From NCBI GenBank assembly GCA_030606385.1, contig JAUWGN010000001.1:1-29867 (forward strand): a DNA stretch of 29,867 bases. The letters are read 5' to 3'. A program made the position numbers and the translations under genes. The notes beneath the pieces are model-generated. The model worked only from the letters and a program-made list of their open reading frames with translations, was not told the DNA's origin and searched no databases. Shown piece after piece: positions 5,382-12,417 of the stretch. Within the stretch, counting starts at the first letter, position 1. The number at the start of each line of letters is the position of its first letter. Origin of the DNA: Dehalococcoidia bacterium. GTDB lineage: Bacteria; Chloroflexota; Dehalococcoidia; GIF9; AB-539-J10.

Positions 5382-7793
5382 ATGACACAAGACGAGCTAA
5401 ACAACAAACCAAATAACGAGTATCGCGCCGAAGACATCCAGATTCTAGACGAGATAGAAGCAGTCCGTCTACGCCCTGGAATGTATGTCGGGAGCACCGA
5501 CCGTCAAGGACTGCATCAACTCCTCTATGAAATAGTATATAACAGCATAGATGAGGCTATGGCTGGTTTCTGCGACCAAATTGATGTGACAATTCACCCA
5601 GATAACAGCGTCACCGTGGTGGATAACGGGAGAGGCATCCCTGTTGACATTATTCCAGAAACAGACATTACTGCTTTACAAGCAGTGATGACCCATCTAC
5701 ACGCTGGAGCAAAGTTTGGAGGAGCTGTTTACCAAATATCAAGCGGATTACACGGCGTCGGTGCTTCGGTGGTGAATGCTTTGTCTGCCTGGCTTAAAGT
5801 CGAGATTAGAAGGGAAGGGAACATATATCGCCAGGAATACCGGCAAGGTATTCCTATAGGTGCTATAGAAATCATCGGTCACGCCCAAGATACCGGCACT
5901 AAAATCATGTTTCTCGCCGATAGTCTAATCTTTGAGGATATCGATTACGACTTTGGCACAGTTTGCCAGCGCCTGAGAGAATTGGCTTTTTTGAATAGCG
6001 GGGTGGAGTTAGCAATCAAGCATGAGAGCAGTGATGCCGAAAAAACATTTTACTTCGAAGGTGGAATAGCTACTTTAATTTCCCGGGTAAGCAAAAATAG
6101 GACGGTTATACATCCGGAACCCATCTTACTAAAGAATTCAGCCAACAGCACTGCAATTGAAGTAGCCTTGCAATACAACGATAGCTCCATAGAGTCCACT
6201 TTCTCCTTTGCCAATTGTGTTAGCACCAGAGAGGGAGGCAGCCACCTTACCGGTTTTCGTTCCGCATTGACCCGCGTCCTGAATGATTACGCGCGAAATA
6301 ATAAATTCATCAAAGATACCGAACCCAACCTAACCGGGGAAGACGTCCGTGAAGGGATGGTAGCGATTATCAGCGTAAAGTTACCCCATCCTCAATTTGA
6401 GGGGCAAACTAAAGCAAAACTGGGCAATCCTGAAGTAAAAAGTCAAGTCGAATTTGTCGTCGCCGATGGATTGTCCCTCTATCTAGAGCAACATCCAGAC
6501 GAGGCAAAGACAATTATCGCCAAATGCCTCATTTCCGCTAAGGCAAGGGAAGCAGCACGTAAAGCACGCGAGCTCGTGTTTAAGAAAAGCAGCTTCGAAA
6601 TATCAGTCTTGCCCGGAAAGCTGGCCGATTGTTCCGAAAAAGACCCATCCTTGTGTGAGCTTTACCTAGTTGAAGGCGAGTCAGCCGGTGGTTCAGCTAA
6701 ACAGGGACGCAACCGCCAATTCCAGGCTATCCTCCCTCTGAAAGGGAAAATACTCAATGTCGAAAAGGCCGCTAAAGACAAGATCGTACAACATGAAGAG
6801 ATAAGAGCTGTTGTCACCGCATTAAGAGCAAATACCGATGGACAACCTGACCTCTCGAAGCTCAGATACCACAAAATAATCATCATGACCGATGCCGATG
6901 TCGATGGCTCTCACATTCGCACCCTGCTGCTCACCTTCTTCCACCGTTACATGCTGGAGTTAATCACCCATGGATACCTTTACATCGCCCAACCACCCCT
7001 TTATCGAGCAACTATAGGGAAAACGCAAGAATGGATATATTCGGAGGAGGAGATGGAAAGGGTTTTTGCCAAGAAAGCGTTCGATAAAGTCTCCATCTAC
7101 TCAAAAGATGGCTCTGTTAATCTAACCGGAGTGAAGATACGTGACTTTTTGAATTCACTAAGAGAGTTAAACCAAGGGTTAGATGACCTCCTTGATAAGG
7201 AAGGTATACCGCGAGAACTAAGCGCCGCCCTTCTGAAGAAAGATGAGTCTTTTTATCGCTTCGATTTCCCGGTTAAAAGAACTATGCAAGAACTCAGGAC
7301 TTGGTTAGAGGAATTTGGGTGGACAGTCAGGTCACACTCGAGTGATGAAAAAAGTGAATACTGGTTAGAGGTTGATTTGGAAGCTGGCAAGAAAAAGTTT
7401 GACAGGCAATTTTTTGAAAATCCAATCCTTCGTAAATGCTTCAAGGCCTATCCCCAAGTCAAGAAATTAATTGAGAATAAATCGTACATTATTGTTAAGA
7501 ATGACAAGGAGATTGGTAAAGATATTCCTTGGTATAAACTTGCTGAGGTGCTGGAAAAAATCTCTGAAAGGTCAGGAGTAGTAATCCAGCGTTACAAAGG
7601 ACTGGGGGAAATGAGCCCCGAACAGCTATGGGAAACCACCATGAACCCCGAGACCAGAACGTTGCTCAAGGTAACTGTAGAGGACGCTATAGCGGCAGAC
7701 CAGATATTCACCATGCTGATGGGACCCGAGGTAGCTCCACGCAAGAGCTTTATTCAGGCTCACGCTCAAAGTGTCAGGAACCTAGACGTCTAG
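5382..7793 (+). CDS. gyrB: DNA gyrase subunit B, long form with a ~160-aa insertion in the TOPRIM region
   Basis: EAVRLRPGMYVGS, NSIDEAMAG, DNGRGIP, GLHGVGASVVNALS, PQFEGQTK, PLKGKILNVEK, MTDADVDGSHI, QRYKGLGEM and LWETTM motifs. Confidence 0.95.
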   Translation: MTQDELNNKPNNEYRAEDIQILDEIEAVRLRPGMYVGSTDRQGLHQLLYEIVYNSIDEAMAGFCDQIDVTIHPDNSVTVVDNGRGIPVDIIPETDITALQAVMTHLHAGAKFGGAVYQISSGLHGVGASVVNALSAWLKVEIRREGNIYRQEYRQGIPIGAIEIIGHAQDTGTKIMFLADSLIFEDIDYDFGTVCQRLRELAFLNSGVELAIKHESSDAEKTFYFEGGIATLISRVSKNRTVIHPEPILLKNSANSTAIEVALQYNDSSIESTFSFANCVSTREGGSHLTGFRSALTRVLNDYARNNKFIKDTEPNLTGEDVREGMVAIISVKLPHPQFEGQTKAKLGNPEVKSQVEFVVADGLSLYLEQHPDEAKTIIAKCLISAKAREAARKARELVFKKSSFEISVLPGKLADCSEKDPSLCELYLVEGESAGGSAKQGRNRQFQAILPLKGKILNVEKAAKDKIVQHEEIRAVVTALRANTDGQPDLSKLRYHKIIIMTDADVDGSHIRTLLLTFFHRYMLELITHGYLYIAQPPLYRATIGKTQEWIYSEEEMERVFAKKAFDKVSIYSKDGSVNLTGVKIRDFLNSLRELNQGLDDLLDKEGIPRELSAALLKKDESFYRFDFPVKRTMQELRTWLEEFGWTVRSHSSDEKSEYWLEVDLEAGKKKFDRQFFENPILRKCFKAYPQVKKLIENKSYIIVKNDKEIGKDIPWYKLAEVLEKISERSGVVIQRYKGLGEMSPEQLWETTMNPETRTLLKVTVEDAIAADQIFTMLMGPEVAPRKSFIQAHAQSVRNLDV

Positions 7794-9297
7794 GACGCTT
7801 GGCAAGCTCCAGACAAAGCTTCTTATCCAGTTTTATGTCTCTTTCAGCAAACAATTTGAGGGCAAGGTCTGCAACAGCGTCCTCATAACCTGAGGGAACA
7901 AGCACATAGCTACGACGCCTGTATTGGGAGTATCCCTCTATCCAACCAGATGCTGGGTATAGCTTAGATAGCGGCACGGCTGTATCCTCACTCAACCTGA
8001 CCATGCTCTGTTTTCCAATTTTTTCGACACGGGGCCTTGGAGGAAAGTCAACGAAGACGGTATCACAGCCTGCTTTCTGAGCTAGTTCTAGCTCCATGGC
8101 ATTCTTTTTACTTTGTTGCTGTTCCAACTCAAAAAACTTGCGTTGAGAGACAAGATCCTTCTCCTTAAGCGCTTGCGGTGATATGACAAGAGCACGCTTT
8201 ACCAAAATTCGCTCCCGAAGTTTCCTAACTTTCACTCTTAGCTCTCTATTAACCTGCTTGGAATTTAACAGGTCGTATTCATCCAAGCGAAGGAAGTCTA
8301 CAGCAAATTTCAGACGAGTGCCACTTACAGTCCATTGTTTGCTGCGTATCTCCTGAAGTAAGGAAGCTATCATGCGAAATGACCCTCTCACTTTATGGTG
8401 GTTATACACGGATGAAAACAAAAGCATCTTGTTAAATAGGATTTGCTCTAAAACGGTGGCGCCACCAATATCAACACAAATGAATGGCTCGTCTCCTCGA
8501 GGGTCAAATATAGACAGTGATACGAAAAGCCTATCTGTATCAACTGGTGTAACTAATCCGCTAAAATAGCCATCTCGTCCCATATAGTCAAGCTTATCAG
8601 CATCAAATGGCCCGTTTATTATTTTACTTAGCCATAGCGGATAATCTGAAGAGGCCTTTACTCCAATAATCATATTGGCCACCCGTTTCAAGTTTACTTT
8701 AGTCAAGATACGAAACTGTTTTGCTGGTGCCATATTATACTTACTGATTATGTCTTCCCATAGCTCGCGGAATCGTGCACTTCTCACTATGTAATAAGAA
8801 AGAATCTCGTGGCCCTCAGCTTCTCCAAACAATTTTGGGTCGGCGCGCTTTAACGTCCTTATTTCTCCAGTCGGGTCCCATTCGTCATAGACGATTTCCG
8901 AAGCGTGACTGAACAGACCGTGACCACAGTCGTGAAGCAAAGCAGCGAGGCGAATCTCAGCAGTCTTCACATCACTTATAAGTCCTCCACGTGAACTGCT
9001 TTTGAGCGCGTCAATTATCTTCTGAGCAAAAATAACGACTCCTAATGAATGCTCAAATCTGGTGTGAGTTGCAGCCGGATACGTTAGGTATGCCAGTGCT
9101 GTCTGGTGAACTCGCCTCAAGCGCTGCATGAGAGGGCTATCTATGAGGTTAATTTCGTGTGGGTAGAAAACATTGTGTCCTAAAATGGCATCACGAATTA
9201 TCTTATCGCCGCGAATTTTAAGTGGTGTATACCCATCCAAAAGTTCTTGAAGAAAAGCCTCAATGCGGTTCTCAAAATCGCGTGTGGCCCCAGGCAT
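7774..9297 (-). CDS. HD-superfamily phosphohydrolase, SAMHD1/YwfO-like putative dNTP triphosphohydrolase
   Basis: IRDAILG, IDSPLMQRLRRVHQ, HTRFEHSLGV, LLHDCGHGLFSH, DADKLDY..RD and VYNH: the complete metal-binding H...HD...D set of this family. Confidence 0.9.
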   Translation of the reverse strand: MPGATRDFENRIEAFLQELLDGYTPLKIRGDKIIRDAILGHNVFYPHEINLIDSPLMQRLRRVHQTALAYLTYPAATHTRFEHSLGVVIFAQKIIDALKSSSRGGLISDVKTAEIRLAALLHDCGHGLFSHASEIVYDEWDPTGEIRTLKRADPKLFGEAEGHEILSYYIVRSARFRELWEDIISKYNMAPAKQFRILTKVNLKRVANMIIGVKASSDYPLWLSKIINGPFDADKLDYMGRDGYFSGLVTPVDTDRLFVSLSIFDPRGDEPFICVDIGGATVLEQILFNKMLLFSSVYNHHKVRGSFRMIASLLQEIRSKQWTVSGTRLKFAVDFLRLDEYDLLNSKQVNRELRVKVRKLRERILVKRALVISPQALKEKDLVSQRKFFELEQQQSKKNAMELELAQKAGCDTVFVDFPPRPRVEKIGKQSMVRLSEDTAVPLSKLYPASGWIEGYSQYRRRSYVLVPSGYEDAVADLALKLFAERDIKLDKKLCLELAKRPRRLGS

Positions 9298-9752
9298 TAT
9301 CCTTTCCTTGAGGCCTTGCTATATAGCTGGTCGAATTCATCAGCAAGGCGTCTCAGTTCGCCTTGCTCGGCTTCATTTCGCCGCTCAGTTATGGCTTTTC
9401 TAATGAGTATCAATTTGAATGCTGGTATCTTCAGATACGCGTACCTAGGATTCTCTACTGACATAATCCCGCTAGCTCCAAGGTCAAAAAGAATATCCTC
9501 CAGAGCGCCAGAAATTGGAACAGTATCTGCCGGGCCATAGGTAAAACTCATATCCTGTAACCAATCAGGATACTTTTTGCGCAACTCAGCAAATGCACGA
9601 TACACTGCATTAACCCTCAATCTGGTTCGCTGTTTCTTCCCTTCACCCCTTCCACTCTGGAAACAAAACGCAGCTAACACAGCGTCTGATAAACGAAGCT
9701 CATCTTCAGAAGAGTCTTCTACCTTGCCTCTTCCCAAATGTGAAGATATCAT
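9297..9752 (-). CDS. Hypothetical protein, weak resemblance to YwgA/SocA(Panacea)-like winged-helix proteins
   Basis: Strong SD AAGGAGG (9759-9765) and a stop/start overlap (TAATG) with the HD gene. The segment F-T-YGP...S..LE..L..L...G resembles the YGP-x-S motif of YwgA/DUF4065 proteins. The family assignment is tentative. Confidence 0.7.
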   Translation of the reverse strand: MISSHLGRGKVEDSSEDELRLSDAVLAAFCFQSGRGEGKKQRTRLRVNAVYRAFAELRKKYPDWLQDMSFTYGPADTVPISGALEDILFDLGASGIMSVENPRYAYLKIPAFKLILIRKAITERRNEAEQGELRRLADEFDQLYSKASRKG

Positions 9753-9833
9753 TTATCGCCTCCTTTTTGATTACCCAGGCTATTTTATAAGTAGAACTCT
9801 TTGCTTTTACCTCCTTTTATCCTCCTACCTTAA

Positions 9834-9842
9834 ATTATAGCA
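9834..9842 (-). promoter_or_regulatory. Extended -10 promoter upstream of the wHTH-HD operon
   Basis: Minus strand TG-C-TATAAT (9842-9834), about 80 nt upstream of the 9752 start. Confidence 0.55.
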
Positions 9843-9921
9843 CAAAGGTTCTATATAAGAAACGGGGGTTAATGCGGAAGTAACTTAACATGTTTAACCC
9901 TTGTCTTCTACCTCCTTTCAT
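9835..9921 (-). CDS. Possible leaderless 28-aa peptide (MKGGRRQGLNMLSYFRINPRFLYRTFVL)
   Basis: The ATG at 9921 lies 7 nt after the -10 of the promoter at 9957-9929, the same geometry as the HTH gene. An internal AAGGAGGT could alternatively serve the second Met. There is no homology evidence. Confidence 0.3.
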   Translation of the reverse strand: MKGGRRQGLNMLSYFRINPRFLYRTFVL

Positions 9922-9928
9922 AGATATT

Positions 9929-9957
9929 ATAATATTTTATTTATTGTCATTTGTCAA
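9929..9957 (-). promoter_or_regulatory. Promoter/operator copy 2 (TTGACA-17-TATTAT)
   Basis: TTGACA at 9957-9952, 17-nt spacer, TATTAT at 9934-9929. It overlaps the stop codon of the HTH gene. Confidence 0.7.
9936..9957. repeat. 22-bp perfect direct repeat, copy A (copy B at 10192-10213)
   Basis: tttatttattgtcatttgtcaa is identical at 9936-9957 and 10192-10213. Confidence 0.95.
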
Positions 9958-10177
9958 TAAGTTTTCGCCTCTTGTTAACACGTATTTGAGTAGCAAGCCA
10001 TTTAATCTCAGCATCTGTAAGCATGTAGCGATTGCCAAATTTTTGAGCCGTCGGTAACTTCCTTTTTATCAAATCATCCACTTGTTGACGAGCGTACCTA
10101 TGACGCCCCTTCATCTTAGCTAATTGCTCACAGACCTCCTCAGTCGGGTACATTGGTAAAGCAACGAGCACCGACAT
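9947..10177 (-). CDS. Small excisionase-like/MerR-type HTH DNA-binding protein (HTH_17-like)
   Basis: Y-x2-EEV...RQQVDDLIKRKLPTAQKFGNRYMLTDAEI fits the HTH_17 pattern (L-P-A-x-K-x-G-x2-Y). The ATG lies 7 nt downstream of a canonical promoter and has no SD. Confidence 0.75.
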   Translation of the reverse strand: MSVLVALPMYPTEEVCEQLAKMKGRHRYARQQVDDLIKRKLPTAQKFGNRYMLTDAEIKWLATQIRVNKRRKLIDK

Positions 10178-10184
10178 AATGCAA

Positions 10185-10213
10185 AGCTTAATTTATTTAT
10201 TGTCATTTGTCAA
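10185..10213 (-). promoter_or_regulatory. Promoter/operator copy 1 (TTGACA-17-TAAGCT), probably producing a leaderless mRNA for the HTH gene
   Basis: TTGACA at 10213-10208, 17-nt spacer, TAAGCT at 10190-10185, 7 nt, then ATG at 10177. Confidence 0.65.
10192..10213. repeat. 22-bp perfect direct repeat, copy B
   Basis: Identical to 9936-9957. Confidence 0.95.
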
Positions 10214-10288
10214 GAAAATCTCTCTACCAAACATAGGTGAATTCCTAAGCCAATAGGTATGTAAGCAATCATTGTCTATTATCAATAA

Positions 10289-10912
10289 TTAAATGTCCTT
10301 ATTATCACTACCCCTGATGTAGAGCTTCTGCTTCGTGATATATTCTTCTACTTTGTCCGACACAAGATACCGGATTGATAATCCTCGAGCCACACGCTCC
10401 CGAATCTGTGAAGAACTAATATCAATTATCGGGGTAGCGACATAGCTGACCCTATCAGTTATCCCCGGAATATGACGCTCTAAATCCTCTAAAGCTGAGA
10501 AAGCTAAATTTGCTCTGGGCACAACGGCTAACTTGCATAGTTGGATTAGCTTGCTCGGCTCCTTCCACTCAGCAAACTGAGCTAGAGCATCACATCCCAG
10601 GATAAAAAACAAATCCGCCTGAGCACCTAACCGATTCCTGAGCTCAACCATAGTATCTATAGTATACGATGGGCCAGAGCGCTCCACCTCCACATCGCTT
10701 AGTTCAAAGTAAAGGTTAGAGAGAATAGCCAGACGCAGCATCTCCACGCGATAACCTGCCGGGGTAATCGGATGCTGCAGCTTAAGCCACGGCTGACCCG
10801 CAGGTACAAAAAGAACTTTTTCCAACCGTAACTGGACTTGGACTGCTTCAGCAATAATGAGATGCCCTATATGAACAGGGTCAAAGGTGCCTCCCAAAAC
10901 CCCCACTCTCAT
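10289..10912 (-). CDS. nadD: Nicotinate-nucleotide adenylyltransferase
   Basis: GVLGGTFDPVHIGHL, PAGQPWLK, GPSYTIDT, FILGCDAL and ISSSQIRERV motifs. Confidence 0.97.
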   Translation of the reverse strand: MRVGVLGGTFDPVHIGHLIIAEAVQVQLRLEKVLFVPAGQPWLKLQHPITPAGYRVEMLRLAILSNLYFELSDVEVERSGPSYTIDTMVELRNRLGAQADLFFILGCDALAQFAEWKEPSKLIQLCKLAVVPRANLAFSALEDLERHIPGITDRVSYVATPIIDISSSQIRERVARGLSIRYLVSDKVEEYITKQKLYIRGSDNKDI

Positions 10913-11070: not shown

Positions 11071-12417
11071 TTAATACGAATTGTCAATTTGTCGTTTAAT
11101 TTGACTGATTTGCCTTTTCAGCTTGGAATTAACCCCTAAATCGTTAGCTATTTTCTTATATCCATGGAGTATTGTGGCATGATTCCTATTGCCCAATATA
11201 TTGCTGATCTCGGTGAAAGAGTAATTTCCTTTCTCTCGCAGGAGATACGCTGCGATTTGGCGTGCTAGGGAAGTCTCCCTGTCCCTCTTTCTGCCTAGCA
11301 ATTGCTCTAAGGAACAGTCAAAATATTCAGCTACCGTTTGGACTATTAATTTACAGTCATCGTTGTTTTTATTAGTTGTTAATAATTTGGTGACTATTTG
11401 TGGAGTTAAGCTAAGCCCGGTTAACTTGGTATAGGCATCGAGGTATGTGAGGGCACCTTCAAGCTGGTAGACGTTATCCTGTATCTTCTGTGCGATAAAT
11501 TGCAGTGTCTCTTCGATGATAGGGAGTCTCTTCTCCGTTGACTTGGCTTGAAGTATAGCTAACCGTGTCCCAAAATCGAGTGGTTGAATTTGAGTAACAA
11601 GACCACATTGCAGGCGTGATCTTAGCCTGTTGCTGACTAAAGACATCTCTTTGGGGGCGCAGTCAGCAGCGATCACAATTTGACAGTTATTATGATAAAG
11701 CTCATTGAAGGTATGAAAGAAAAGCTGTTGAGTCTGCTTTTTATTATCTAGTAGTTGGAAATCATCGAAAAGGAACATATTTACCGGGGCGAATTTGCTT
11801 CGGAAATGGTCTACATCGTTCTGCTTGACTGCGAGCACAAATTCAGTGATGAATTGGTCAGCGGAGGAGTAAACCACGTTCAGTCCACTTTCTATCGCCA
11901 TGTGCCCGATAGCATGTAACAAGTGAGTCTTGCCGCGCCCAGTGTCTCCATGAATGATGAGTGGATTATAGACCAGTGATGGTTGCTGGCTTACCTCTGT
12001 GGCTGCAGCATAGGCAAGGCGATTACAATCACCCACCACAAATCTGGCGAAAGTGTATTTCGGGTTAAATCGGTAGGTTTTCATCCTGGTGCTTACTCCA
12101 CCGTCGTGCTGCAATGACTTCTCCCTGGCTAGTGTTGGCTGCTGTACCACGAATTGGACCTCTAAGTCTTTTCCTAAGATAATGGCAATGGTCTTCTTTA
12201 TCAATGAGTGAAAGCGTTTTGTAAGATACTCAGCGATGAAAGTATTGGGAACGCTAACTACGAAGACGTCGTTTTCACAACTGATACCTTGACTATCTCT
12301 AAGCCAGGTATCATAGTTTATCCTGTTGACTTGGAGTTGAAGCTGTCCTAAAGCTCTAGCCCAAGCCTCTTTTGCCGAAAATGGTTCACTCATAGAAACA
12401 AAATCACCGATAGCCAC
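11071..12417 (-). CDS. dnaA: Chromosomal replication initiator DnaA (start GTG 12417 or ATG 12393)
   Basis: Domain I (YDTWL), FNPKYTFARFVVGDCN, YNPLIIHG..G.GKTHLL, FFHTFNELY, RLRSRLQCGL and domain IV (ARQIAAYL...RNHATILHG) motifs. Confidence 0.97.
   Translation of the reverse strand: MAIGDFVSMSEPFSAKEAWARALGQLQLQVNRINYDTWLRDSQGISCENDVFVVSVPNTFIAEYLTKRFHSLIKKTIAIILGKDLEVQFVVQQPTLAREKSLQHDGGVSTRMKTYRFNPKYTFARFVVGDCNRLAYAAATEVSQQPSLVYNPLIIHGDTGRGKTHLLHAIGHMAIESGLNVVYSSADQFITEFVLAVKQNDVDHFRSKFAPVNMFLFDDFQLLDNKKQTQQLFFHTFNELYHNNCQIVIAADCAPKEMSLVSNRLRSRLQCGLVTQIQPLDFGTRLAILQAKSTEKRLPIIEETLQFIAQKIQDNVYQLEGALTYLDAYTKLTGLSLTPQIVTKLLTTNKNNDDCKLIVQTVAEYFDCSLEQLLGRKRDRETSLARQIAAYLLREKGNYSFTEISNILGNRNHATILHGYKKIANDLGVNSKLKRQISQIKRQIDNSY

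Follow-up and report, generated by a model that had tools for sequence, protein, structure and literature searches.

Gene content of the nadD-gyrB junction

The stretch of DNA considered here, referred to below as the window, comprises 29,867 nucleotides (nt) of a marine Dehalococcoidia bacterium (Chloroflexota; GIF9; AB-539-J10; contig JAUWGN010000001.1 of assembly GCA_030606385.1), and carries a small accessory module of about 2.5 kb between the core genes nadD and gyrB. The module consists of HD, which encodes a SAMHD1/EF1143-type HD phosphohydrolase, predicted to be a deoxynucleoside triphosphate (dNTP) triphosphohydrolase and the putative effector, of p151, which encodes a small protein that has a possible DarG-C-terminal/Panacea-like fold and is predicted to bind HD, and of p76, which encodes a basic putative DNA-binding regulator of the HTH_17/excisionase type and is a variable third gene. 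All three lie on the minus strand, in the order p76 (9947-10177, 76 aa), p151 (9297-9752, 151 aa) and HD (7774-9297, 507 aa). Base 9297 is common to the p151 stop codon and the HD start codon, which gives TAATG on the minus strand, and HD overlaps the convergent gyrB gene (5382-7793, plus strand, 803 aa) by 20 nt at 7774-7793. On the other side of the module, the open reading frame (ORF) map places nadD (10289-10912, 207 aa) and dnaA (11071-12417, 448 aa), both on the minus strand.

A first-pass annotation of this DNA had described three co-oriented genes between gyrB and nadD, translational coupling of p151 to HD and a 20-nt overlap of HD with the end of gyrB, and the ORF coordinates agree with it on each of these points. 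It had also placed the genes next to oriC; the minimum of the cumulative guanine-cytosine (GC) skew falls at about 10.5-11.5 kb of the window, beside dnaA, and the module therefore lies a few kb at most from the likely origin.

The HD enzyme

HD matches the Pfam profiles HD (PF01966; 44.9 bits, cut-off 22) and HD_assoc_2 (PF19276; 50.1 bits, cut-off 23.1), and both matches were also obtained in the search of the genome. Its best matches in the PDB are 2hek, 2q14, 9mr6 (a fungal SAMHD1), human SAMHD1 and EF1143 (2o6i). The motifs previously noted in the protein, namely the H...HD...D set, RFEHS and GHG.FSH (GHGLFSH in the window), are all present. Among 39 homologues, conservation is complete or at least 97% at R80, H83, H122, D123, H126, H131, E164, D234, D237, Y238, R241 and D242, a DxDKxDYxxRD block is invariant, and the same catalytic and substrate residues are found in HD relatives that have no partner gene. 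D53, Q58 and R61 are likewise invariant and align with D137, Q142 and R145 of SAMHD1 (position 27 of the query corresponds to SAMHD1 position 111), which we take to be the guanine-nucleotide allosteric site. By its sequence, HD is a SAMHD1/EF1143-type protein (COG1078) and not a Dgt-like one, which bears out the SAMHD1-like assignment made at first. Since SAMHD1-type domains are combined with invariant catalytic and allosteric residues, a nucleotide-activated dNTP triphosphohydrolase is the most likely activity of HD.

SAMHD1 is a central antiviral enzyme of animals, and the depletion of dNTPs is a proven anti-phage strategy. Three HD homologues with 37-40% identity (P0148, P0162 and P0177) carry TIR_2, TIR and SEFIR domains in addition to HD and HD_assoc_2.

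The p151 family and its predicted complex with HD

Scans of p151 against Pfam, NCBIfam, PADLOC and PHROG found no match, and a search of the PDB with the sequence profile of its family returned chance-level matches only. The protein has 57 close homologues, and a profile search extended the family to 222 representative clusters, whose members measure about 70-200 aa and include no fusion with HD; the clusters that were looked up carry 'hypothetical protein' as their only name. Wherever the context could be read, an HD gene adjoins a gene of the p151 family, and the co-occurrence on which the idea of a coupled pair had leaned is thus upheld. HD lies directly downstream of the small gene, and usually overlaps or else abuts it, in the close relatives and at loci L002, L003, L029, L031, L033, L036, L106 and L108, and at L109 the two are convergent on opposite strands. 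At three HD loci of high GC content (L037-L039), the DNA upstream of HD was not readable by ORF scanning. A locus search with a 13-member alignment yielded two loci only. Beside the HD proteins that are most distant from that of the window, a p151-type partner is absent.

An AlphaFold model of p151 (AF2) based on a 96-sequence alignment has a predicted local distance difference test (pLDDT) value of 87.5 and a predicted template modelling (pTM) score of 0.81, and it replaced an initial model that was built from 13 sequences with a pLDDT of 57. In a Foldseek comparison with the PDB, the top match of this model is the toxin-binding domain at the C-terminus of DarG (7yk3_D; probability 1.00, template modelling (TM) score 0.56, expectation value (E) 0.017, 129 columns). 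A Panacea protein ranks fourth among the viral models that match p151 (E 0.21), a protein atlas offers weak Panacea leads, and DUF4065/Panacea proteins have been described as homologues of the DarG C-terminal domain (PMC13621843, 2026). The modelled structure is suggestive of a DarG-C-terminal/Panacea-like fold, although the resemblance falls short of customary significance levels. Among 25 Panacea loci sampled in the class, none adjoins an HD gene of this kind. The isoelectric point (pI) of p151 is 9.0 in the window, whereas the family has a median of 6.4, with 30% of its members above 8, which argues against a conserved DNA-binding role; to judge from these sequences, the family is more likely to consist of protein binders than of DNA-binding winged helix-turn-helix proteins. 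Of the first reading, which called p151 winged-helix-like and pointed to Panacea domains that act as antitoxins, a suggestive resemblance in fold has survived, whereas the Pfam Panacea profile and profile-profile alignment give it no backing and a consistently basic character is not found in the family.

When p151 and HD were predicted jointly, the interaction prediction score from aligned errors (ipSAE) was 0.94, 0.94 and 0.93, against 0.00 for the best control; in the calibration of the method, 58 of 80 solved complexes attain this mark, as do 2 of 110 mismatched pairs, and these counts are approximate here as custom alignments were used. The prediction supports a direct binding of p151 to HD. 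On the p151 side, the predicted interface comprises the conserved core at residues 66-105, including F70, S81, L91 and N101-P102. On the HD side, it would involve residues 150-159, 221-222, 266-273, 374-397 and 421-461, which for the most part belong to the C-terminal lobe. W452 forms part of this surface and Y456 lies next to it, and both are conserved only in this HD clade.

At locus L108 (10396-13060 of a 418-kb metagenome contig), which has an Xre gene, a small partner and HD, the HD gene is split by an insertion sequence (IS) element (DDE_Tnp_1) and the small gene is intact. Purine-synthesis genes lie downstream of this trio.

The third gene and the duplicated operator

The conserved core of the module is the pair of p151 and HD, while the third gene varies between carriers, and the trio is thus not the fixed unit that it was initially taken to be. 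The p76 protein has a pI of 10.1 and no match in Pfam, and it reaches the PHROG excisionase phrog_1840 at an E of 7e-4. At the same position in locus L027, a 75-aa gene encodes a protein with 35% identity to p76 (E 1e-14), and this protein in turn matches Pfam HTH_17 with an E of 0.0012 and 19.4 bits, below the cut-off of 27. Thirteen p76 homologues were found, and one with 87% identity precedes a pair of 144-aa and 509-aa (HD) genes. In other carriers, the third gene is a 62-66-aa gene that was read as ribbon-helix-helix-like and has no database match, or, in four lineages, a divergently transcribed Xre-type gene of the HTH_3 family.

In the window, p76 is flanked on both sides by copies of a 28-nt repeat that share an exact 22-mer core. 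The first copy (10189-10216, minus strand; 22-mer at 10192-10213) lies upstream of p76, and the second (9933-9960, minus strand) overlaps the p76 stop codon, stands upstream of p151-HD and holds a near-consensus sigma-70 promoter (TTGACA-17-TATTAT, 11 of 12 matches). Two exact copies compare with 0.01 expected by chance; they are the only ones in the genome, and the 22-mer does not occur in the related genomes G004, G001, G003 and G709. L106 shows such bracketing as well, and so does L027, where the motif has diverged along with the regulator. On the sequence level, this arrangement fits one regulator that serves both its own promoter and that of p151-HD. The control by a dedicated helix-turn-helix protein that had been suggested for the module is accordingly in keeping with the position of p76 between two module-specific promoter/operator copies, whereas the excisionase-like label comes from sub-threshold matches.

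Homologues of p76 also occur beside other genes. At L104 (5303-7208), in another lineage, a homologue with 66% identity stands at the nadD-gyrB junction with a 166-aa gene and a phosphoribosyltransferase gene and not with the HD pair. At L105 (927-2895 of a short contig), a homologue of 66% identity is located beside an rve_3 fragment and two genes of 166 and 400 aa, and a gene resembling dCTP deaminase is convergent to them.

Insertion, population frequency and transfer

In three genomes of the same genus (G004, G001 and G003), blastn comparison showed nadD and gyrB tail to tail and 24-40 bp apart. The flanks of G004 are 97% identical to the window at the nucleotide level, and relative to this genome the block 7793-10337 is extra: the empty allele has a 40-nt spacer in its place, and the last codons of nadD (10289-10337, minus strand) are altered by the insertion, so that the NadD C-terminus is unlike that of the congeners. 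The empty-site joint (7792 to 10338), with the same 40-nt spacer as in G004, is also present in the metagenome runs X2 (70.5x) and X3 (42.2x), in which the depth of the module is 0-6x. The block is a true insertion with respect to these empty sites, as had been supposed, and it is a rare allele, the empty form being dominant in the metagenomes. The adjacency of nadD and gyrB that the first-pass annotation had given for Dehalococcoides holds in the three congeners and in other Dehalococcoidia families. In run X1, a cold-seep metagenome that is the likely source sample, Logan contigs tile the region with zero differences and bridge the left junction (7792/7793), while among the listed Logan pieces none spans 10136-10258, which leaves the right end of the insert unbridged in this run. 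Within the window's GTDB order, this genome is the only one of 202 with a close p151 homologue, and none of 7 congeners has one; for HD, homologues with E <= 1e-20 were obtained from 31 of 401 genomes in the phylum. No target-site duplication was found at the ends of the insert.

Read depth is uneven within the module. In run X2, the bin 9812-9955 has a depth of 87.6x, compared to 0-3x for the rest of the module, and its source is a contig that matches only 9915-9947; in run X1, positions 10100-10243 are nearly uncovered (0.62x) and one contig diverges before 10263. The p76 region may thus be variable between strains, or part of it may recur elsewhere.

The same module occupies the same junction in other hosts. 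A congener-like metagenome contig (L017) has the order dnaA-nadD, a 66-aa gene, p152 and HD, followed by convergent gyrB-hisS, and the module also stands at this junction in L027 and in L014-L016/L028, metagenome-assembled genomes that are named Dehalococcoidales by NCBI and that lie outside the window's GTDB order, as the order-wide search did not recover them. Compared with L017, the housekeeping proteins are 76-84% identical over most of each gene, HD 85% and p151 89%. Compared with L027, HD is 76.5% and p151 71% identical, whereas gyrB reaches 63%, hisS 61%, fmt 54%, nadD 50% and dnaA 43%. HD changes at about the rate of dnaA and hisS at short range and is far too similar at long range. 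Of 61 relatives of the L027 genome, just one has the module. The excess of identity argues for horizontal transfer after the hosts had diverged, given that the module is much more alike between distant hosts than gyrB, hisS and dnaA are. Vertical inheritance or slow evolution combined with repeated loss would be a less likely source of the shared junction, and with empty sites and patchy carriage the trio does not show the synteny and vertical descent across Dehalococcoidia that would have spoken against an accessory role.

Across the class, the gyrB/nadD junction is conserved and its content is variable: it is empty in some lineages, holds a phosphoribosyltransferase gene in one family, or contains an FMN reductase gene and other small genes. 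This variety makes the core junction a recurrent site of small accessory genes. The phosphoribosyltransferase gene encodes 186-189 aa and occurs at the junction in family f17 (L093, L094 and L097). The window thus offers a clean natural presence/absence polymorphism at an origin-proximal junction of core genes in uncultured sediment Dehalococcoidia, and hosts that are only distantly related have the same module at this junction.

A possible conflict module and its alternatives

A self-toxic dNTPase needs to be held in check, and the known answers are nucleotide allostery in SAMHD1 and, in the Clover system, inhibition by a nucleotide that the partner enzyme synthesises. The module suggests a third mode of restraint, namely a dedicated protein clamp with an antitoxin fold. 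Unrestrained HD would drain the dNTP pool and thereby halt DNA synthesis. p151, which would be encoded on the same mRNA and translated just before HD, may bind the C-terminal lobe of HD as an obligate partner and most likely keeps it inactive or gated until a release trigger arrives, which could be phage infection, loss of the partner or stress; we infer inhibition in preference to activation. p76 probably controls its own promoter and that of p151-HD through the duplicated 22-bp operator. A horizontally mobile conflict module built around a protein-restrained dNTPase, either toxin-antitoxin-like or acting in abortive infection by nucleotide depletion, has in our estimate about an even chance of being the correct reading. 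It draws on a partner with a predicted antitoxin-like fold ahead of a potentially self-toxic enzyme, on the swapped regulator, on a distribution that is patchy, of low frequency and marked by transfer, on the TIR-HD homologues and on the HD gene disrupted by an IS element next to an intact small gene.

Several known systems bear on this reading. HD resembles SAMHD1 and the EF1143/TT1383-type dNTP triphosphohydrolases in its HD and HD_assoc_2 domains and in its catalytic and aligned allosteric-site residues, and unlike SAMHD1 it has no SAM domain. Enzymes of this type are regulated by nucleotides and by oligomerisation, and we know of no dedicated co-encoded protein partner for any of them. The C-terminal domain of DarG (PDB 7YK3) from the DarTG system, the best structural match of p151, directly binds and inhibits its cognate enzyme; in contrast to DarG, p151 has no macrodomain, its sequence identity to the domain is 13%, and the enzyme is an HD hydrolase and not the ADP-ribosyltransferase DarT. 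The closest precedent is provided by pairs of PanA (Panacea/DUF4065) with an 'HD domain-containing protein' (CDD YdhJ), which form cluster pT33/T34 in a supplementary dataset and are given there as putative toxin-antitoxin pairs marked untested (Kurata et al. 2022; PMC8832971). The module shares with these pairs a small protein, in p151 with a merely suggested DarG-C-terminal/Panacea fold, whose gene adjoins and overlaps a COG1078-type HD gene, as well as a patchy, toxin-antitoxin-like distribution. Like PanA antitoxins, p151 adjoins the gene of a candidate toxin (through TAATG) and is predicted to form a direct complex with it (0.94 versus 0.00 for controls). In contrast to the listed pairs, p151 is not seen by the Pfam Panacea profile, the order in the window is partner before HD and not toxin before antitoxin, a separate and swappable DNA-binding gene is present, and the hosts are Dehalococcoidia and not Clostridia. 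PanA-HD pairs are therefore already known, as a predicted kind only, while new elements here are a branch of partners that Pfam Panacea does not detect, a gene order that is reversed, the architecture of third gene and operator, and the population and transfer evidence at nadD-gyrB.

Clover is a two-gene anti-phage system that consists of the CloA deoxyguanosine triphosphate triphosphohydrolase (dGTPase) and the Pol-beta-type nucleotidyltransferase CloB (Yamaguchi et al. 2025; PMC12265719). Its partner restrains the dNTPase and thereby avoids self-toxicity, as is proposed for p151, but CloB acts by synthesising an inhibitory nucleotide, whereas p151 is predicted to act by direct binding and its 151 residues match no nucleotidyltransferase family in Pfam or NCBIfam. 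The anti-phage dGTPase attributed to Tal et al. 2022 is reportedly a single-gene system in which an HD enzyme depletes dNTPs. The activity predicted for the window's HD would be alike, but that dGTPase belongs to the Dgt-type HD subfamily, to whose models HD gives matches that are partial or far below the cut-offs.

A number of observations weigh against a conflict module. The match of HD to the PADLOC dGTPase profile is partial (E 2.7e-6, profile positions 51-122, 72 of 395), it scores 14.6 bits against a cut-off of 400 with the NCBIfam anti-phage dGTPase models (NF041026/NF003701), and the module has no match to a known defence system. PF19276 occurs in 9 of 14 control genomes, among them that of B. 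subtilis, which has no match to PF13274, and SAMHD1-like HD proteins are also common housekeeping enzymes. On long contigs, the neighbours of the module are housekeeping and not defence genes, and the insert contains no mobility gene (integrase or transposase). The complex score is the model's own confidence and stems from custom alignments, and as p151 is predicted to contact the C-terminal lobe and neighbouring loops of HD, away from the metal ligands, inhibition would be indistinguishable from activation or scaffolding. The fold match to DarG is moderate (E 0.017, TM 0.56, with 13% sequence identity), p151 has no Pfam Panacea match (PF13274), this family is not among the top 25 listed for 96 members, and hhalign gives a probability of 6% between the p151 family and 23 Panacea proteins.

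An alternative is a heteromeric enzyme of the nucleotide pool with no role in conflict, in which p151 would serve as a structural subunit or an allosteric one that may activate HD, and which would trim or balance dNTPs in slow-growing sediment bacteria as part of a niche-adaptive accessory operon. The predicted complex is tight and conserved, with the most conserved residues of p151 in the interface, as would be expected of an obligate subunit, the coupling of the pair is stable over wide divergence, the HD_assoc_2 family is widespread in model organisms, and the neighbours are of the housekeeping kind, with purine-synthesis genes downstream in L108 and no defence genes nearby. Such an enzyme would nonetheless not be expected to be so extremely patchy, to be kept at low population frequency and passed across lineages, or to exchange its regulator among unrelated types; TIR fusions, an IS-disrupted HD gene beside an intact small gene and a predicted partner fold otherwise known from antitoxins fit it poorly too, and we consider it unlikely. 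A substrate other than dNTPs, either nucleic acids, as proposed for SAMHD1, or signalling nucleotides, with a winged-helix-like core of p151 that targets HD to DNA or RNA, is in turn quite improbable. The HD superfamily is functionally diverse, p151 is basic in the window (pI 9.0) and its model has weak matches to the winged-helix proteins ORC/Cdc6, MarR, F93 and LmrR, but these have E values of at least 0.65 and TM scores of at most 0.4, compared to 0.56 for the DarG domain, most members of the family are not basic (median pI 6.4, 30% above 8), the catalytic and substrate-binding residues of the SAMHD1 type are all invariant, and a separate DNA-binding gene is always supplied.

The genes could also be the cargo end of a site-specific integrative cassette system, with p76 as a recombination directionality factor that, with an integrase located elsewhere, directs cassettes to the nadD-gyrB junction, and the 28-nt repeats as recombination sites, an origin that is compatible with any of the functional readings. 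The weak excisionase match of p76, its homologues with different cargo at the same junction (L104) or with other cargo and an rve_3 fragment (L105), the occupation of the same junction in distantly related hosts and repeats that bracket exactly p76 all point in this direction. However, neither the insert nor the window region has an integrase, the insert ends lack a target-site duplication, the repeats contain a near-consensus sigma-70 promoter and flank p76 only and not the cargo, and the junction also varies in lineages without p76, which leaves this origin a slim chance. Returning to the conflict module, its most specific form would make p151 the founder of an unannotated, sequence-divergent branch of the DarG-C-terminal/Panacea fold that clamps or senses a SAMHD1-like dNTPase and that, together with a swappable operator-binding regulator, forms a new three-component anti-phage system of nucleotide depletion moving between distant Dehalococcoidia into the origin-proximal nadD-gyrB junction; this we put forward tentatively, as a doubtful extension of the general reading.

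Length variation of gyrB and the p151 leader

The gyrB gene of the window contains a net insertion of about 160 aa (7008-7577) between PPLYR and IQRYKGLGEM and therefore encodes 803 aa, whereas GyrB of the congeners has about 640 aa and is 95-97% identical elsewhere. The site of this insertion is that of the long insert of E. coli GyrB. Long forms that are 48-60% identical are also encoded in other families of Dehalococcoidia (46 of 401 genomes of the class), and nearly identical long alleles were found in three other metagenomes, a recurrence that served as a check of the gyrB region against chimeric assembly. One of these alleles adjoins an empty nadD-gyrB site, and the gyrB polymorphism is thus independent of the HD module. 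The tail of gyrB (7577-7792) is 85.6% identical to that of G004, compared to 97% for the flanks. At the left end of the insert and at the gyrB junctions, a chimeric assembly can be dismissed, since 7006/7007, 7576/7577 and 7792/7793 are each spanned by independent contigs that show no differences.

The leader between p76 and p151 (9753-9946, minus strand) contains strong Shine-Dalgarno-like AGGAGG motifs and an imperfect duplication of 37 nt, the copies of which (9784-9820 and 9885-9921) are 73% identical; its homology to L017 extends only to 9857. A mini-ORF of 27 codons (9838-9921, minus strand) has its ATG 7 nt past the -10 element of the second promoter copy, and only its 3' part is common to L017.

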